A stretch of DNA of 64,000 nt, taken from contig NJBH01000004.1 in assembly GCA_005223125.1 (NCBI GenBank), positions 1 through 64,000 of the forward strand, given 5' to 3'. Below the pieces are notes generated by a model. The model did no database searches. It had not been told where the DNA came from and saw only the letters and a program-made list of their open reading frames with translations. Position numbers and translations under genes: made by a program. The DNA is from Promethearchaeota archaeon Loki_b32 (GTDB taxonomy: Archaea > Asgardarchaeota > Lokiarchaeia > Sigyniarchaeales > SOKP01). Within the stretch, counting starts at the first letter, position 1, and the number at the start of each line of letters is the position of its first letter. This document shows, one piece after another, positions 11,953-31,911 of the stretch.

Positions 11953-12711
11953 TTACCTTTTCATTTTTGGTTTTGAGAATCGATAAAAAATACCAGTATA
12001 ATCCTTTAATTCTTGAGATAATTCTATCAAGCTCAAAAAATTTATAACATTAGAAGTAAAATCTTTTGATACAGGACCCATACATCCCTCACAAGGAAGC
12101 CCCATTTTTATACATTTATGTTCACATCCATCACGAGTTATTGGTCCTAAACATAAAATACCTTTTTTTAAAAAACATTCAGAATTTTCTTCGTTTAGAC
12201 TAATTTCTTCTGGATTAGGATTGATTTTGGTGATATTTATTTGAAAATTAATTTCCATTTTTTCCCATATTGGACAATTGGCGCACATATTTTTTTCGGA
12301 TAAGGTTATATCTTTATTCTCAACCAACCTAATTACACTGTTTCCAAAAAGCTTAGAGGGCGGGGGACAGCCAGGAATAATACCATCAACTTCAATATAA
12401 TTAGAGAGTGGTTCTGCTATTTTTGAATTTGAAAGGCTAAGAATTCCTCCAAAACAAGCGCAGGTTCCTAAAGCAAATACTTTTTTTGCGTGTCTTCGAA
12501 CTTTTCTAAGGAGTATTATTTGTGTTTCTTCAGAAACACAGCCTTCTACTAATGCTATTTCACATTCTTTAATATCTTTTGCATCTGAAATAAATGGAAA
12601 ATAAATTATTCTTGTTCTTTCAAGAAATTGTGGAAAAATGTCTAAAGACATAAGAGTTGATATACACCCAGTACATGAAGTTAGAGAAATTAATATAAAT
12701 CTAGGCTTCAA
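11953..12711 (-). CDS. mvhG: [NiFe]-hydrogenase small subunit (MvhG-like); probable TTG start at 12711
   Basis: SCTGC, GTCACFGG, PGCPP, CLGPITRDGC…CEGCMGP; GGAGG RBS before TTG. Confidence 0.88.
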   Translation of the reverse strand: MKPRFILISLTSCTGCISTLMSLDIFPQFLERTRIIYFPFISDAKDIKECEIALVEGCVSEETQIILLRKVRRHAKKVFALGTCACFGGILSLSNSKIAEPLSNYIEVDGIIPGCPPPSKLFGNSVIRLVENKDITLSEKNMCANCPIWEKMEINFQINITKINPNPEEISLNEENSECFLKKGILCLGPITRDGCEHKCIKMGLPCEGCMGPVSKDFTSNVINFLSLIELSQELKDYTGIFYRFSKPKMKR

Positions 12712-15250
12712 ATTTAATTTCCTCCAATAGTTGATTATAGAATTTATTAGAAATTTCAGCAAATTTATTACCCTCAACAGCATTCAAATGTTCAAGAATT
12801 ATTCGATCTTTATATTTAGGTGATATAATATTCTTTAATAATCTGATTTTATTTTCTACTTTTTTAATTCCATCAATATATCGACAAGCATCTTGTCTAC
12901 AACCAATTATCATTACTCCGTCGAAACCGAGTTCAAATGATTTAATAATAAAGCTAGTGTCAATGCGCCCTGTACAAGGCACCCTGACAATAAAAATATT
13001 TGGATTATAAGAGATCTTCTTGAGTCCGGCATTATCAGCGGCAGCATATCCACAAGAGGCACAGCAGAAGGCAATAATTTTTGGATGTGTTCTGAATTTC
13101 GAAAAAATTTCAATTGTTGCTAGAATCTTTTCAGAAGTGTCTATGTTTAAATCTATTGCATTAGTAGGACAAACACTAGCACAAGTACCGCAACCCTTAC
13201 ATTTGAATTTATCTATACTAACTTTATCTGATTCTATTATAATAGCATTATAAGGACAAATCTTTAAGCACAGACCACATAAGCCACATCTGTTTTCATC
13301 AATCTCTATTCCTGTAAACTCTGCTATCAAATAATTCTTAGAAAGTAATGCAATGATTTTTAATGCAATATTATTAGTTGTTGATATTGTAGAATTATAA
13401 TCTAATGGGCCAAAGATTGTCCCAACTCCATAAATTCCAGAAGCTAATGTTTCTTCACTCATAAATCCATTGTCATCTAATGTAAAATCCATAAATTTTC
13501 GAAGATTTTTTAGATCTTTATTTGGGACATATTTTAGACTTAATACAATCAAATCACTTGGAAATTCAATATTATCAGCAATAATATAATTTTGATCTTT
13601 ATTAGATTCAATAGTAATTTTGTTGGCATATATAAATCTGGGATTAGTTGATCTTAACAAAATCTCATCCTTATCCTTTAATCTACTTAAATCATAAAAA
13701 ACATTGACTTCACAATCAAGATTTCTTATTTTAATATCCTCAATATATTTTTCTGCCAAATTTTCAGAGTAATCAGCAAGATATTTCGATGGGCCAACTT
13801 CTTGGATAATGGAAATCGTATTTATGGGTATTTTATCTGATAATCTTAAAAGCTTTCCTTCAGTTAAACCGTCAGAAGATAAAATCCGCTCAAATTCAGG
13901 TGAAGTTATTATATTTTTTTTGGGATTATAATGATAATCCTCTAAATCTCCGGAAAAATCGGATCCAATAGCAATAACTTTAGTACCAACCTTAATCTCA
14001 ATCCTTTCTTCTTTTTGAGTTAAATCTATTGCTTTATTCACGCACGCACGTTCACAAATTCTACAATTAAGGCAATTCTTTAAATCTTCTTCATCAATTA
14101 AAGGAATATAAGGATAGGAATGCATAAATGGAATATATATGATTTTTCGATTAATTAGACCAAATTCATATTGATTTGGTTTTTCTATACTACAAACTTC
14201 TATACATTGTTTACATCCTGTACATTTTTTCATATCGACATAACGAGGTTTTTTAACCATATTAATTGTAAAATTTCCTACTTCTCCTGATACATTTTCA
14301 ACTTCAGTATTAGTAAAAAAACTTATATTTTTTTCATTCGCTAACTCACTTATTAATTCTGAAATGAAACATATTGAACAATCACCCATATTATGGATTC
14401 TATGCCATCTGGCTACCTTACCTCCCAATGTTGGTGATTTATCAATGAGATATACTTTTATTCCAGCTCGCGCTAAATTTAAAGCAAGGGTTATACCTGC
14501 AATTCCCCCACCTAAAATTGCACAACTCTTTTCTACCTCAACTCTCTTCACTTTTACTTTTTTTTGAAGATTTACTCGTTCAACAGCGGCTTCAATTAAT
14601 AATTTAGTCTTTTCTAATGAAAGTGAAGGATCTATTTGATTCATTTTAAATTGATGTACCCAGCAACATTGTTCTCTAATGTTAGCTATTTCTATATTTG
14701 TACGATCTATAATATCCTCAAAAATTCGTTCAAAAAGAAGTTGGTGTGTTTTTGGAGAACAAGCTGCTATTACTATTTTATTCAAAAAATTGTCTTTAAC
14801 CCAATTACATATTTTTTCAAAATTCTTTTGTTGACAGAGATTTTCAAAAATCTTTACCGAAACTACTTTTCTTAACTTATTCATATAATTTCCAAGTGCA
14901 GTTATATCAATTACACTTGAAATTTCTGTATTACAATTACAAATAATTACTCCAATCCGGCTTATTTCACTTCCCTTATAGTCTAAATACTCATCAATAT
15001 CTTCTCCCGATAAAATTCTTTTGTTAAGATTAAGTATTTTAAGTACGCGTTTGCCTTCTTCTGTAAGAAAATACGATTTTTTGTCTTTCCTTATTAATGA
15101 GTCGATCTTTTTAAGATGAAAATTTAGTTGTCCAGTTGTTTCTAGACCAAGTTTTTCCATTAAATCAGTATAATGAAGATAACCCTCTCTTTCTAAAAGA
15201 AGTAAAATTTTTCTCCTAAATGGATGAGACAATATTGAATATATGTCCAT
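12701..15250 (-). CDS. Fusion protein: ArsR-like winged HTH + HdrA-like flavo-Fe-S + MvhD domain
   Basis: LSHPFRRKILLLL…TGQLNFHLKK…YFLTEEG wHTH; CNC/AACSP/NIREQC HdrA N-domain; GGGIAG; ferredoxin motifs; C-terminal AFCCASCGYAAAD…RVPCTGRID MvhD. Confidence 0.88.
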   Translation of the reverse strand: MDIYSILSHPFRRKILLLLEREGYLHYTDLMEKLGLETTGQLNFHLKKIDSLIRKDKKSYFLTEEGKRVLKILNLNKRILSGEDIDEYLDYKGSEISRIGVIICNCNTEISSVIDITALGNYMNKLRKVVSVKIFENLCQQKNFEKICNWVKDNFLNKIVIAACSPKTHQLLFERIFEDIIDRTNIEIANIREQCCWVHQFKMNQIDPSLSLEKTKLLIEAAVERVNLQKKVKVKRVEVEKSCAILGGGIAGITLALNLARAGIKVYLIDKSPTLGGKVARWHRIHNMGDCSICFISELISELANEKNISFFTNTEVENVSGEVGNFTINMVKKPRYVDMKKCTGCKQCIEVCSIEKPNQYEFGLINRKIIYIPFMHSYPYIPLIDEEDLKNCLNCRICERACVNKAIDLTQKEERIEIKVGTKVIAIGSDFSGDLEDYHYNPKKNIITSPEFERILSSDGLTEGKLLRLSDKIPINTISIIQEVGPSKYLADYSENLAEKYIEDIKIRNLDCEVNVFYDLSRLKDKDEILLRSTNPRFIYANKITIESNKDQNYIIADNIEFPSDLIVLSLKYVPNKDLKNLRKFMDFTLDDNGFMSEETLASGIYGVGTIFGPLDYNSTISTTNNIALKIIALLSKNYLIAEFTGIEIDENRCGLCGLCLKICPYNAIIIESDKVSIDKFKCKGCGTCASVCPTNAIDLNIDTSEKILATIEIFSKFRTHPKIIAFCCASCGYAAADNAGLKKISYNPNIFIVRVPCTGRIDTSFIIKSFELGFDGVMIIGCRQDACRYIDGIKKVENKIRLLKNIISPKYKDRIILEHLNAVEGNKFAEISNKFYNQLLEEIKFEA

Positions 15251-16532: not shown

Positions 16533-16550
16533 TGATAAATATAATTGTCA
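16533..16550. promoter_or_regulatory. Operator TGATAA-N6-TTGTCA
   Basis: Imperfect palindrome; same motif at 16702, 25886 and 25993. Confidence 0.6.
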
Positions 16551-16701
16551 AAATATATAAATATGATCCTTTTTGTATATTATGTGACTATAAGTAATAA
16601 TAAGAAATGATGGATAATTGCATCAAGTATTAGATAAATGATAGATATTATATTGGAGAATGATCATGGAAAGATCAGACTCGCTCATTAAATAAACAAA
16701 A

Positions 16702-16783
16702 TGATAAAAAATTTTGTCAAAATAACTATAATTTATCTTATCAGATTTTTTAAATTTCTCTTAGCTTATTATTTAATCGGAAA
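16702..16783 (+). promoter_or_regulatory. Operator TGATAA-N6-TTGTCA + TATA (TTTAAATT, 16749) promoter of Sec-hdrA
   Basis: Aligns without gaps to 25993-26073. Confidence 0.65.
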
Positions 16784-25885: not shown

Positions 25886-25903
25886 TGACAAAAATAATTT
25901 TCA
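25886..25903. promoter_or_regulatory. Operator TGACAA-N6-TTTTCA
   Basis: Matches motif at 16533/16702. Confidence 0.5.
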
Positions 25904-25992: not shown

Positions 25993-26073
25993 TGAAAGCT
26001 TAATTTGTCAAAATGATAAATATTTTTCTTATCAAACAATTTAAATTTTAATCATATTATAATATAATTGGAA
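25993..26073 (+). promoter_or_regulatory. Operator TGAAAG-N6-TTGTCA + TATA (26040) promoter of mtd operon
   Basis: Same spacing and conserved blocks as 16702-16783. Confidence 0.62.
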
Positions 26074-26151: not shown

Positions 26152-26802
26152 ATGAAAAGTGATGTATTTAAGATGGAAGTATTAGAATTAAAACCAATAA
26201 GAAACAAAACAGTAGTTATATATTTAATAGATAAAACTAGGATAAACTCTCAACTCAATGATATTGATATTTTAAAGGCGTTAGTAGATAAAAATAATAT
26301 AAATTTTATTACTATTGATATAAATAACGGTAATTTCAAAACTTTCAAAAACTCAAATCTTTCAAGGGTTCTAAATGCCTTAAACGTAGAATATTATTTA
26401 CTAGATATGCCTAAGTACGCATATGGGTATCTTTATGAAGAGATAACGAAGAAAGAAGAGCAAATTAATGACCTATTGGAGGAATACCGAATTATGGATG
26501 ATAAGGACTCTTTTAGAGGTTTAAATTTAAAATCTTGGATTGATGTGCTTAAAAAAGAAGTTTTTCAAGAGAAGAATATTTTAGAAATTAAAATAAGACC
26601 ACAATGGATTGTCAAAAAAATTTTAGATTTAATTAAAAAACATAAAAATGAAAAGGTTTCTCTTATTCATTTTACCAATGAAAGTACCCTTCCAGAAATA
26701 ACTAAGCAATTAAGAAATCTTCATATAGAAGCAATTGTTTATAATTTCAATAATATTTATAATATTCCATATTTAATTATAAAACAGGAGGAAAGTAATT
26801 AA
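26152..26802 (+). CDS. Hypothetical protein paralogous to the N-terminal domain of the downstream Mtd fusion
   Basis: Both share MEVLELKP; aligned blocks YYLLDMPKYAYGYL/YKMVDISENAENYL and KIRPQWIVKKIL/NIREAWMMMGIL. Confidence 0.75.
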   Translation: MKSDVFKMEVLELKPIRNKTVVIYLIDKTRINSQLNDIDILKALVDKNNINFITIDINNGNFKTFKNSNLSRVLNALNVEYYLLDMPKYAYGYLYEEITKKEEQINDLLEEYRIMDDKDSFRGLNLKSWIDVLKKEVFQEKNILEIKIRPQWIVKKILDLIKKHKNEKVSLIHFTNESTLPEITKQLRNLHIEAIVYNFNNIYNIPYLIIKQEESN

Positions 26803-28487
26803 TGGAAGTTTTAGAATTAAAACCCTTAAAGAAAAAAAGTTTAAAACTTATATTAATTGAAAGTGAATTTCCCATAAACTGGTGGTTTGAGACATCAGCA
26901 GAGAAAAAGCATGATTTAGTATGGAATTTACATTTAATTTCAAAGGAGTATCTCAATCTAATTGAACATTTGATTAAGAAATATAATCCTGATTTCGCTG
27001 TAGAAGAGAAAGGAAGCCGTTGGGAAGATGCAATAGCTCCTGACGATCCTCTAGAATCATTATTTAGGGAATTTAAAATTCCTTATAAAATGGTAGATAT
27101 TTCAGAAAACGCAGAAAATTATCTTTCCTCAAATTTGGAAGATTATAGAACTCTTATAAAGCAGTTGACAAAATCAATTAAAGATATTTGGGTGAATAAC
27201 GATAAAAAATTTCCAAAAGATGATTTTGAGTTTCAACGTATGTTTTTATGGAGAGAATACCTGCAACAAGAATACAACCTTCAAGAAGATGAAATAAGAC
27301 TTAATATTCGAGAAGCTTGGATGATGATGGGGATTCTAAAATTTGCAAAGATAATGGGAGAAAAAACACTAAAAGCATTTTTTATCTGTAATCCTAACCA
27401 TTTCAAAGGTATCACTCATCTGGCAGGAGATTTAGGCTTTGAAACTGAAGAAATAAAAATTAAACGGTTGGCAAAAGTTGTTAATAACCCTGGTTCTGAT
27501 TCAATTAAAACTATAATTGGAAAAAGCATACTTGAATTATCGCCGATTAAAGTGAAAAAAAAAGAATCATTAGAAAAAATATGTTATTTTTTTGATACTG
27601 ATGCTAATGCTTCTCCTTTCGATATAAATATGGCTTATGACGCAGGTTTTGATGTAGTTATACCTATTAGTAAGATGACTGCTGATCAAGTACCAAAGCT
27701 CGTACAAGATGCAATTTTTTCTCGGAAACCGAAAGCTCCTACAACATTCTTTATTGGTGGATCTAATGTTAAAGAAGGAGAAAAAATTGCTAAAAAAGTT
27801 ATAAAGTCGTTGGTACCCCCATTTGAATGCCCCGTGATTATAGATCCTCGGGGTTCACACACCACAGCTTCTTCTGTAGTTGCTAAAACTGTTGAAGTTG
27901 CTAAAGAACATGAATTATATGATTTAACAGGTAAAAAAGTAGTTATTTTAGGATCAGGTCCAGTTGGGAGAATTGCAGCTATAATCGCAGCAAAATTAAA
28001 TTGTAAAACGTATTTAATTGAAACCTGGGAAAGATCGAGTGAAGAATTTATAAAAAATCTAGCAAAAGAATTAATGGAAGAAGCTGGAGAAAATTCAACT
28101 GAAATTGTTGGTGTTTTTGCACCAGATGATGAAAAGAAATTAGAAATAATAAATAATGCAGATATAATATGGAGTTTGGCTGCCGCTGGTGTACAAATTT
28201 TATCAAAAGAATTAATGGATAAATTAAAAAACAAAATTGTAATAGACATAAATTTGGTTCCTCCTTATGGCATTGAAGGATTAAAGCCAAAAGATAATAA
28301 TAAAGAAATATACCCAACTATATTTGGAATAGGAGCATTAGCTTTAGGACGTTTAAAATCCAATATTGAAGCAAATATCCTTAAAGAAGCATCAACAACT
28401 AAAGGAAAAAAAGTATTTGATTACAATTATGCTTTTGAGCAAGCAAAGAAACTCCTTTTTGGAAATGAAATAAAATTGTCAACCTAA
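26802..28487 (+). CDS. NAD(P)-dependent methylene-H4MPT dehydrogenase (MtdA/MtdB family) with ~250-aa N-terminal extra domain
   Basis: FDTDANASPFDINMAYDAG, DAIFSR, IDPRGSHTTA, GSGPVG, DINLVPPYGIEG, GIGALALG. Confidence 0.85.
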   Translation: MEVLELKPLKKKSLKLILIESEFPINWWFETSAEKKHDLVWNLHLISKEYLNLIEHLIKKYNPDFAVEEKGSRWEDAIAPDDPLESLFREFKIPYKMVDISENAENYLSSNLEDYRTLIKQLTKSIKDIWVNNDKKFPKDDFEFQRMFLWREYLQQEYNLQEDEIRLNIREAWMMMGILKFAKIMGEKTLKAFFICNPNHFKGITHLAGDLGFETEEIKIKRLAKVVNNPGSDSIKTIIGKSILELSPIKVKKKESLEKICYFFDTDANASPFDINMAYDAGFDVVIPISKMTADQVPKLVQDAIFSRKPKAPTTFFIGGSNVKEGEKIAKKVIKSLVPPFECPVIIDPRGSHTTASSVVAKTVEVAKEHELYDLTGKKVVILGSGPVGRIAAIIAAKLNCKTYLIETWERSSEEFIKNLAKELMEEAGENSTEIVGVFAPDDEKKLEIINNADIIWSLAAAGVQILSKELMDKLKNKIVIDINLVPPYGIEGLKPKDNNKEIYPTIFGIGALALGRLKSNIEANILKEASTTKGKKVFDYNYAFEQAKKLLFGNEIKLST

Positions 28488-28868: not shown

Positions 28869-30305
28869 TTAGAAAAAGATATCCATGAAGTCTAAGTTTT
28901 CTAAATCCATAAGATTGTTTTGTATGAATTTTGTAGTCAAGTCCTTTAAAATTTTTGACTTGATTATATCTATGTAGTTTTTAAATTTAGTTAAGATTTG
29001 ATCTATTTCATTTTTTATTACCTGAGAAGGATTAATTGGCCTGTAAAAATTTTGGTATTTAAATATCCATTTTCTCTGTTTTAATTTTTTAATAATGTTA
29101 TATATTATTTCTGGTTTTAGTTTCATAATGTCACGTAACATAAATAAATCAGCTTCTCCTATGGATAAGAGTGTAGTGTAGGTTTTTACTTCAAGTTTAG
29201 TGACATCAAAAAATTTTAATGCAGAATAAATCTTATCGCTAGTTTCTGTCATTTGCATTTTCTTCTTTTTGGAAGCCTTCTTGATTTTATTAGGATCTAT
29301 ATTATTTGAAATTATTATTTTTCTTCGAGTTAAAGCATCATTAAAGAGTCGTTGACCCTCTTCAGTACGAATAATAACACTATTCCAATTATCACTCGGG
29401 ACACCTACACTACCTATTGAGATGTCAGCGAAGTAAGCAGTATAATCTTTGCAATGTTCACAGCTTGAATAATGATATCTGTTTGTATCTTTTATTGAGA
29501 TTTCTTTCATTGTTCCATTATTTAAATAAACAATAAACTTACCATGAGAAACATCAATTTTTTTAATTTCGCCAAGAGAGATTCCAATTAAATCTTTAAT
29601 TAGGGTGTACATTGAATCATATGAATAATTAGATGAACAAAATAATCCAATAATTAATTTGAAATTACCATATTTATCTGAAAGAGGTGGCCATAGTTGA
29701 AATTTTCGTACCGCTTGAATTTGACATGGCAAACCGACAAATCCAAGATTTTCAATTTTGTATTTGCATACTGCATCTTTATATGTACTTAAAGTTGGAA
29801 CCATAGCATATATTGACCCTGCAGCGTTCCTTACTTCTTCTGGAGATCTTGCTATGAAGGGTTTAGGGTGCCATCTTTCATCCTTATTAGCCATCAGAAC
29901 TCCATCTATTAATCCTGTATCTAAGGCATGAAGAAGTAAACTAGTAACCACTCCACCATTTTGGGCGTTTTTTAAAATATTATTATCAGTACTTCTAGCG
30001 GCAGTTATTTTTTGATAATATCCTAAAAGAGAGTCTTTTTGAATTCTTTCTTTAAAAATTTCCTTTTCAAAAAAATTTCTTGGAAAAAAAGTTCTTGTAC
30101 AATATTTAAAACATAATGAACATTCTGGGTCATAATCTATTAGCGTTGGTTTATTTTCTTCAATGCCAATACGAGGACATATAGAGAGACAAGCTCCACA
30201 GTTCACACAATTTTGTTTACTTATAACTAAATCAAATAAATCTTGAAATCCATAAGATGAAATATCACATTGCAAATATTCAATCATTTGTTCTTTAGTT
30301 ATCAT
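28869..30305 (-). CDS. FrhB-family F420-binding Fe-S flavoprotein fused to C-terminal TrmB-like winged HTH
   Basis: CVNCGAC, AQNGGVVT, GLPCQI, GLFC, CEHCKDYTAYFADISIG; tail LKFFDVTKLEVKTYTTLL…IYNIIKKLKQRKWI…YRPINP is TrmB-like. Confidence 0.82.
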   Translation of the reverse strand: MITKEQMIEYLQCDISSYGFQDLFDLVISKQNCVNCGACLSICPRIGIEENKPTLIDYDPECSLCFKYCTRTFFPRNFFEKEIFKERIQKDSLLGYYQKITAARSTDNNILKNAQNGGVVTSLLLHALDTGLIDGVLMANKDERWHPKPFIARSPEEVRNAAGSIYAMVPTLSTYKDAVCKYKIENLGFVGLPCQIQAVRKFQLWPPLSDKYGNFKLIIGLFCSSNYSYDSMYTLIKDLIGISLGEIKKIDVSHGKFIVYLNNGTMKEISIKDTNRYHYSSCEHCKDYTAYFADISIGSVGVPSDNWNSVIIRTEEGQRLFNDALTRRKIIISNNIDPNKIKKASKKKKMQMTETSDKIYSALKFFDVTKLEVKTYTTLLSIGEADLFMLRDIMKLKPEIIYNIIKKLKQRKWIFKYQNFYRPINPSQVIKNEIDQILTKFKNYIDIIKSKILKDLTTKFIQNNLMDLENLDFMDIFF

Positions 30306-30758
30306 TTTTCAACATTTTATTTATTTTTTTGAATTATTGTTTATGATAATAATACTTCTAAATTCATCATATATATTATATTATTACGTATATAAAAATG
30401 ATCGATAAGGAAAAACTTTTATATTGAGAAATAATATATGGTTATTGAAAAGAATAGTTCTATTTTAGATTTTAAATACCAACCCTTAACCTAACATTTT
30501 AAACCCTTGCTAGGAGTGGAAAATAAATAGTTCATGACCTAATTTATTTGAATAAATAGAACTAATCTTTTCTTCTCCATTTTATTAAATAAGATAGAAA
30601 AATTAGAAAAAGAAATAGAAAAAAAATTTAAAACACAAAAAAATAAAGTAGATCTCTGTGAATTACCTTTATGGGGAATCAAACAAAAAGAATTTTCTAA
30701 ACCTAAATCATAAAAAAAATTATAAAAAGCGTAATAAATAAATGTGGAGTAATTTGAA

Positions 30759-31491: not shown

Positions 31492-31911
31492 ATGCTAGAA
31501 AGAAAAAAAAAGGATCAGATGAAATTTGTTTATCCAGAAGCTTTAGTTACTACTGATGAAATTAAAGTTTATGGAGAGGTAGAGGAAGAATTATTAACCG
31601 AAACAAATCCATTTGAAATGGCAAAAAGACAAGTCGACATTGTTGCCGAAAAGATGGGACTAAATGATAATATCAAAAAATATCTTAAAAGAGTAGAACG
31701 TTCCTTAATCGTATCGATTCCAATTAAGATGGTTGATGGAAGTATCGAGATATTCTAGGGTTATAGAGTACATCACTCAACCGTTCGGGACCCTGGAAAA
31801 GGAGGTATAAGATTTGCTCCAAATGTTAATCTTGATGAAGTTAAAGCATTAGCCACTTGGATGACTTGAAAATGTAGCTTATTAAAGTTACCTCTTGGAG
31901 GAGCAAAAGGG
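31492..31911 (+). pseudogene. gdhA: Glutamate dehydrogenase 5' fragment with two nonsense codons, truncated
   Basis: [22 protein letters not shown]…[24 protein letters not shown] then homology is lost; TAG 31756, TGA 31867 (Trp site). Confidence 0.88.

Follow-up and report, generated by a model that had tools for sequence, protein, structure and literature searches.

A ferredoxin-FrhB protein with a TrmB-type winged helix-turn-helix tail in Asgard and other archaea, a candidate oxidoreductase

The window, the whole 64,000 nucleotide stretch analysed here, includes a gene predicting a protein in which a ferredoxin domain and an FrhB domain are followed by a TrmB-type winged helix-turn-helix (wHTH) and a long amphipathic helix (Table 1). 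Pfam places Fer4 at aa 27-44 and, both above their cut-offs, FrhB_N at aa 101-173 (E 1e-26) and FrhB_C at aa 185-333 (E 1e-40). Pfam TrmB is found at aa 363-426 (E 2e-4) with 21.5 bits, below the gathering cut-off of 25.6, and the label is present on many of the homologues. The tail is missing from the window's other two FrhB paralogues, of 369 and 381 aa, and among the ten full-length FrhB-family proteins of the genome it is carried by this single-copy gene only. A further redox-enzyme/HTH fusion, the wHTH-HdrA-MvhD gene, is located nearby. The original prediction had proposed this architecture, the tail-less paralogues and the second fusion from the sequence, and all three agree with the Pfam, AlphaFold and Foldseek results.

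Table 1. Features of the fusion gene and its surroundings (positions are those of the window; aa numbering is that of the fusion protein).
Feature	Position	Strand	Details
Fusion gene	28869..30305	(-)	478 aa: ferredoxin + FrhB + TrmB-type wHTH + coiled-coil helix
Ferredoxin domain, 2x[4Fe-4S]-type, aa 21-76	30078..30245	(-)	Cys33/36/39/43/62/65/69, with Asp59 at a Cys position
FrhB domain, aa 90-350	29256..30038	(-)	Cys194/223/282/285, QNGG FAD motif, Ser299-Val300 F420-site loop, Ser225 replacing Glu136 of FrhB
TrmB-type winged helix, aa 357-425	29031..29237	(-)	Recognition helix at aa 398-410; wing short by 3-4 residues relative to TrmB controls
Amphipathic helix, aa 426-467	28905..29030	(-)	Predicted antiparallel dimerisation coil; near-invariant Glu433, Asn463, Asn464
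Promoter footprint	30388..30403	(-)	GATCA immediately 5' of TATA-like box; 98 nt before ATG; conserved
Neighbouring operon with MtdA/B-type (Mpt_N) dehydrogenase	26152..28487	(+)	Convergent (tail-to-tail) with the fusion gene; linked in 13/53 loci
Island operator TGAYAA-N6-TTGTCA, two copies	16533..16719 (16533, 16702)		Further copy at 25886
wHTH-HdrA-MvhD fusion	12701..15250	(-)	Recognition helix nearly invariant; in 91/135 family genomes

The AlphaFold model of the protein, based on a 119-row alignment, has a mean pLDDT of 87.8 and a pTM of 0.86. Its tail (pLDDT ~90) is composed of four helices, a short hairpin and a 42-residue helix, and Foldseek aligns it with TrmBL2 over 113 columns (probability 1.00, rmsd 2.4-2.5 Å), which identifies a wHTH of the TrmB type. 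When the tail is folded alone TrmBL2 is again top-ranked (Z 11.6, rmsd 6.0, 120 aligned); other wHTH proteins are within 1 Z of it, but most span only the 60-residue core. A profile search with the tail matches TrmBL2 and TrmB at E 2e-4. As in TrmB, TrmBL2 and MreA (PDB 5BPD, 5BOX, 3QPH; PMC4158304), an extended wHTH is followed by an amphipathic helix, which in those proteins forms an antiparallel dimer and in the fusion is predicted to do so. However, the module is C-terminal in the fusion, and neither a sugar-binding domain nor the TrmBL2 C-terminal domain is present. Foldseek matches to the head are the F420-reductase subunit of an ethanotroph CODH, which has the closest fold (PDB 8RIU chain B, 8RIU_B), and FrhB. 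A single gene joining an FrhB/iron-sulfur redox module to a TrmB-type wHTH and dimerisation helix is thus real.

An assembly or read-through artefact was ruled out, as at least 119 full-length homologues of ~478 aa exist and all strong tail matches sit in frames of FrhB length or in fragments. Nearly all of the 120 top homologues are complete; their identity is 48-81%, and they belong to Asgard archaea wherever the source is named. Strong matches to the tail were found in 50 of 400 Asgard-phylum genomes, namely 44 of the 135 in its own family, all 5 of one other family and 1 elsewhere, and a profile search of the whole library detected divergent fusions in Ca. Argoarchaeum and Ca. Ethanoperedens (ethane-oxidising Methanosarcinales) and in Nitrososphaerota MAGs. 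The architecture is therefore conserved in relatives. The 27 fusions sampled all group together as a single clade (SH-aLRT 97) in a tree of the ferredoxin-FrhB part alone, made with a quick search and midpoint root, and therefore the fusion arose once and was then kept. Nested in this clade is a 588 aa protein (L047:7824-9590 (+)), encoded in a GlcD/Hdr-like cluster, that has a polyferredoxin in place of the TrmB tail. No paper describing an FrhB-TrmB fusion was found in a literature search that most subscription papers lay beyond, and the passages of an archaeal fusion survey (PMC11237513) and of an F420 review (PMC8498797) reached by keyword do not mention it.

Residues of the head were mapped onto FrhB of M. 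marburgensis (PMC3591093, PMC3930138). The four FrhB cluster ligands (C194, C223, C282 and C285) are invariant in the family, and the FAD pyrophosphate motif is kept, with Q115, G117 and G118 invariant. The S209-V210 loop of FrhB, named in both papers as lying beside the F420 site, corresponds to Ser299-Val300, which are conserved in 96% and 71% of the family. Departures from FrhB are seen in the flavin loop (C-M-E-N-F), where Ser is found in 97% of the family at the position of Glu136 and may alter turnover, and in the K75-Y76 loop, where Lys75 is replaced by Ile in the window copy; Lys is retained in 47% of the family, and 8RIU_B has Asn. The ferredoxin contains seven Cys, with the remaining ligand position occupied by Asp59; Asp is found here in 99% of Asgard copies and Cys in Nitrososphaerota copies.

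The head shares a ferredoxin-plus-FrhB build and the same cluster and FAD motifs with FpoF/FqoF and with the zeta subunit of the Ca. Ethanoperedens CODH (PMC11493965), to which it is 33% identical (8RIU_B; rmsd 2.2 Å over 343 columns). It differs from these in the 120-aa TrmB-derived tail, in the Asp59 and Ser225 substitutions and in lacking adjacent genes for Fpo, CODH or hydrogenase partners, and it scores 167-169 bits with the NCBIfam FpoF/FqoF equivalog models, far below their cut-offs of 444-475. Likewise, the catalytic core is 37-38% identical to FrhB, the beta subunit of F420-reducing hydrogenase (PDB 4OMF, 9R51), and has its four cluster cysteines, but the fusion contains the extra ferredoxin and tail, is not accompanied by frhA or frhG, and scores 254 with TIGR03289 (FrhB), below the cut-off of 331.5. 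Judged by these models, the head is FpoF-like in build yet neither an FpoF nor an FrhB equivalog.

From its fold the head would be expected to bind and use F420. This expectation is a conditional one because HCAR, a chlorophyll reductase, shows that the FrhB fold can accept other substrates, and the head could likewise belong to a flavo-Fe-S enzyme acting on a substrate other than F420. The departures in the flavin loop (Ser for Glu136, and Ile for Lys75 in the window copy) and a family with its own invariant residues are consistent with such a substrate. However, the nearest matches in sequence and in fold are without exception F420 enzymes, the S209-V210 loop is retained, and the host genome carries the F420 synthesis genes cofD and cofE-like, along with Mer-like genes and an F420-dependent mtd; a non-F420 substrate is considered highly improbable.

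When two copies of the protein were folded together, a TrmBL2-like antiparallel coiled-coil dimer was predicted with a score of 0.60, against 0.00 for the best of 3 controls, where the score mark is one reached by 20/30 solved pairs and 1/23 single chains. At least 90% of contacts agree between runs and pLDDT is at least 81, though a similar TrmBL2 dimer has already been solved and likeness to it may account for the pass. S381, P426, N463 and N464, among the best-conserved residues of the tail, lie within the predicted interface. In the model, the interface residues around the tip of the partner's helix, 71-76, 284 and 286 among them, lie beside the cluster ligands, and this contact could provide an allosteric path. 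The CODH zeta subunit also dimerises via a C-terminal extension (PMC11493965).

The DNA-contact face of the tail departs from that of TrmB regulators. Tyr50 plays an important part in how TrmB, TrmBL1 and TrmBL2 bind DNA (PMC4158304); the equivalent position, 402, is Tyr in 15/120 Asgard fusions and 0/9 Nitrososphaerota fusions compared with 76/83 control TrmBs. A basic-plus-aromatic pair in the recognition helix is present in 57/83 controls and in only 1/120 Asgard fusions, and the window copy, which has Tyr402, carries Ile at the basic position. At positions 397-400 the Asgard fusions average 1.9 acidic and 0.5 basic residues and the controls 0.2 and 1.2, and every one of the 129 fusions has a wing span of 14 residues versus a median of 17 in controls, most of which have 17-18. 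At four loci the recognition helix of the fusion is only 24-47% identical to that in the window, whereas the head is 50-60% identical; the wHTH-HdrA recognition helix, an internal control from the same loci, is almost invariant. On these alignments the DNA-contact face looks degenerate across the fusion family, sequence-specific reading appears to have been lost in most members, and the protein is best classed as an FrhB-family variant rather than a TrmB regulator, the recognition signature being absent at family level. The window subclade keeps Tyr402 and a basic wHTH, with a net charge of up to +7 (+7 in the window copy). As this subclade is nested deep in the tree, Tyr402 may have been regained there.

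A tail of this kind might hold DNA with no motif, in which case the protein would bind the nucleoid non-specifically, much like TrmBL2 or MreA, and carry a redox enzyme or switch on the chromosome. TrmBL2, the nearest structure to the tail, binds DNA without a motif (PMC4877046, PMC3419521), which would explain why an operator is missing, and Arg411 is 97% conserved in a tail whose mean HTH-plus-wing charge is +1.4 in Asgard fusions. Nevertheless, TrmBL2 itself keeps Tyr50 and a full wing, the Nitrososphaerota copies average a charge of -1.2, and the gene is patchy, being present in 44/135 family genomes, so that a nucleoid role seems quite improbable.

The fusion gene stands alone, and no fixed partner enzyme is encoded beside it. 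The original prediction had relied on its adjoining mtd, and this part does not stand. The neighbouring gene (26802-28487) encodes an Mpt_N protein of the MtdA/B NAD(P)-type family, the F420-dependent Mtd is found on contig C34, and the argument from mtd fails because the neighbour is not an F420-dependent enzyme. This MtdA/B-type dehydrogenase is fused to an unassigned N-terminal domain of ~270 aa, and the 216-aa gene ahead of it in the same cluster (26152-28487 (+)) has no Pfam match. On the other side of the fusion gene, 31492-31911 (+) is an apparent remnant, corresponding to the first 130 residues of a protein with full-length copies on contigs C64 and C23 that is glutamate-dehydrogenase-like by eye.

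A promoter footprint ~100 nt before the start of the fusion gene is common to the window subclade and several others whose recognition helices are unrelated. Its 15-mer has 22 exact matches in 135 genomes, and the non-genic ones are mostly before the fusion gene and once before the mtdA operon. The seven genes with the footprint in the Loki_b32 genome have no redox theme and form no regulon. The footprint was considered as an autoregulatory operator and rejected, since a TATA-like box lies inside it, unrelated recognition helices share it and it marks no regulon, and it is left as a core-promoter or other-factor site. In one locus (L112 = G216:C85 ~57.8-58.4 kb) a fusion copy with an interrupted frame still keeps the footprint.

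The palindrome TGAYAA-N6-TTGTCA, here called the island operator, has 7 matches at one mismatch where 2.05 are expected, and a weaker copy was seen at 25993. It is conserved across the family before the mtdA and frhB-wHTH-hdrA-mvh operons and is absent before the fusion gene in the window. The fusion is present in 22/45 motif-positive genomes (background 44/135) and wHTH-HdrA in 37/45 (background 91/135), counts in which kin are not independent and MAGs are incomplete. Five genomes (91-95% complete) that have no fusion still carry the motif before the same mtdA and frhB-hdrA operons. It was therefore rejected as the site of the FrhB-TrmB protein, which probably does not read it. The wHTH-HdrA-MvhD protein would be a better candidate reader, and recognition-helix conservation, which differs sharply between the two fusions of the window, makes it the stronger sensor candidate. 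No operator or regulon tracking the fusion gene was found, the candidates failing on co-occurrence in the 135 family genomes.

These results bear on the regulatory role that had been predicted, in which the protein is a one-component redox-sensing transcription factor, at least in the Tyr402/basic-helix window subclade, with the FrhB head reading the F420/F420H2 ratio. F420H2 would reduce the chain of FAD and Fe-S centres, upon which the coiled-coil dimer would shift, and the altered spacing of the wHTHs would change DNA affinity, with operators differing among lineages. Such a sensor fits a complete TrmB wHTH and coil with a TrmBL2-like dimer model, Tyr402 and the net charge of the window copy, a gene that stands alone in a redox island and has a conserved footprint in its promoter, and modelled interface residues that adjoin cluster ligands. 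It would also accommodate the Asp at one cluster-ligand position, as Asp-ligated clusters occur in the NsrR and Bacillus Fnr sensors. Tyrosine is dispensable in MreA, which has none yet binds promoters and regulates (PMC4158304, PMC3419521). However, the recognition helix, with its acidic start, is free to vary among close relatives, the Nitrososphaerota copies are net negative, subclades whose recognition helices are unrelated share one promoter footprint, which marks no regulon, and the island operator is independent of the fusion gene. The wHTH fold, the conserved fusion, the intact FrhB cofactor sites and the F420-related genes of the host (cofD, cofE, mtd and Mer-like) upheld the prediction up to that point, whereas the step from wHTH to regulator is not supported: the DNA-contact face is degenerate across the family, no regulon was found to track the gene, and the mtd argument is lost. 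A role as an F420-reading transcription factor, of which no described example was found in the literature searched, is rather unlikely.

Relatives differ from the window in what precedes the gene. At 16 loci (L021, L022, L023, L026, L027, L030, L032-L035, L037, L038, L042, L049-L051), which include the deepest Asgard branch sampled, an Ile/Leu/Val-rich leader ORF of ~28 codons is found ~200 nt before the fusion gene. It starts just past a TATA-like box and in clear cases contains 13-18 Ile/Leu/Val codons, and its stop codon overlaps a segment with two mutually exclusive pairings, an attenuator-like arrangement. Both leader helices show two-sided changes, and their shares of paired cells (92.9% and 88.5%) are far higher than in slid controls, though this support is not independent as the structures were derived from the same sequences. 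Searched with the leader RNA model, the Loki_b32 genome shows one site (L146 = G000:C37:41887-42072 (-)), before a 962-aa protein read as LeuRS (leuS) from its N-terminus. The window fusion copy does not have the element; a Leu/Val mini-ORF upstream of it was attributed to chance, being by inspection not conserved in the subclade, and the leader model matches only the leuS site. Membership of the leader set would, for the lineage concerned, link the fusion to the status of branched-chain amino acids, a connection more in keeping with a metabolic enzyme than with a general F420 sensor. A MeaB GTPase gene follows the leader-controlled fusion in L021 (6946-7932) and L037, a hint of an acyl-CoA mutase context.

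The reading favoured here, which we put at slightly better than even, is a stand-alone homodimeric ferredoxin:F420 oxidoreductase of FpoF/FqoF-like type that uses a former DNA-binding module as a scaffold. Electrons would enter the two N-terminal clusters from reduced ferredoxin, produced for example by 2-oxoacid oxidation, or from another one-electron partner such as an Fe-S subunit belonging to a different enzyme, and would pass from there through the FrhB cluster and FAD to F420. The tail would derive from the N-terminal module of a TrmB regulator, kept mainly as a dimerisation scaffold holding two heads, and perhaps also as a docking surface for the partner. The computation shows the architecture, the conserved cofactor ligands, the single origin and the degenerate DNA face, and it predicts the dimer; we infer F420 as substrate, catalysis and its direction, the partner and the absence of DNA binding. 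An oxidoreductase is favoured because the head motifs are intact, soluble FpoF has ferredoxin:F420 oxidoreductase activity (PMC9012536), the tail has been exchanged in L047, the DNA face is degenerate and several of the best-conserved tail residues fall in the predicted interface; the island operator, moreover, persists in genomes without the fusion, and the leader would suit a metabolic gene.

Several features count against the oxidoreductase. Tyr402 and the basic wHTH persist in the window subclade, and the example of MreA shows that regulation does not need the tyrosine. The whole TrmB module has been retained in three phyla, and a lone gene divergent from a redox gene in several loci is a frequent trait of regulators. 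The partner helix tip modelled beside the cluster ligands, the Ser in the flavin loop and the lack of a fixed partner enzyme encoded alongside also argue the other way. If the protein is an enzyme, it would by itself connect the ferredoxin pool with the F420 pool in Asgard archaea and ethane oxidisers. Such an enzyme would have been built through recruitment of a regulator's dimerisation module, would in one lineage be tied to branched-chain amino-acid status, and would caution against reading every Asgard redox/HTH fusion as a sensor. If the protein is a regulator, it would sense the F420 redox state directly.

Other neighbours of the fusion gene vary among loci. A gene of ~625 aa predicting an MvhD-like protein with HTH, ferredoxin and FrhB domains adjoins it in close relatives, namely in L001, L002, L004 and L043, where the two are divergent, and in L007-L010, which are rearranged; an example is L004:5918-7801 (-). 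The promoter footprint has a copy at both genes in L009 and L010, and the relative in the Loki_b32 genome (C36:74.9-76.9 kb) is apparently split into two ORFs. In Nitrososphaerota MAGs (L113, L119-L122) the fusion gene lies downstream of, and co-directional with, an archaellum/type IV pilus operon, and is often convergent with etf/fix genes.
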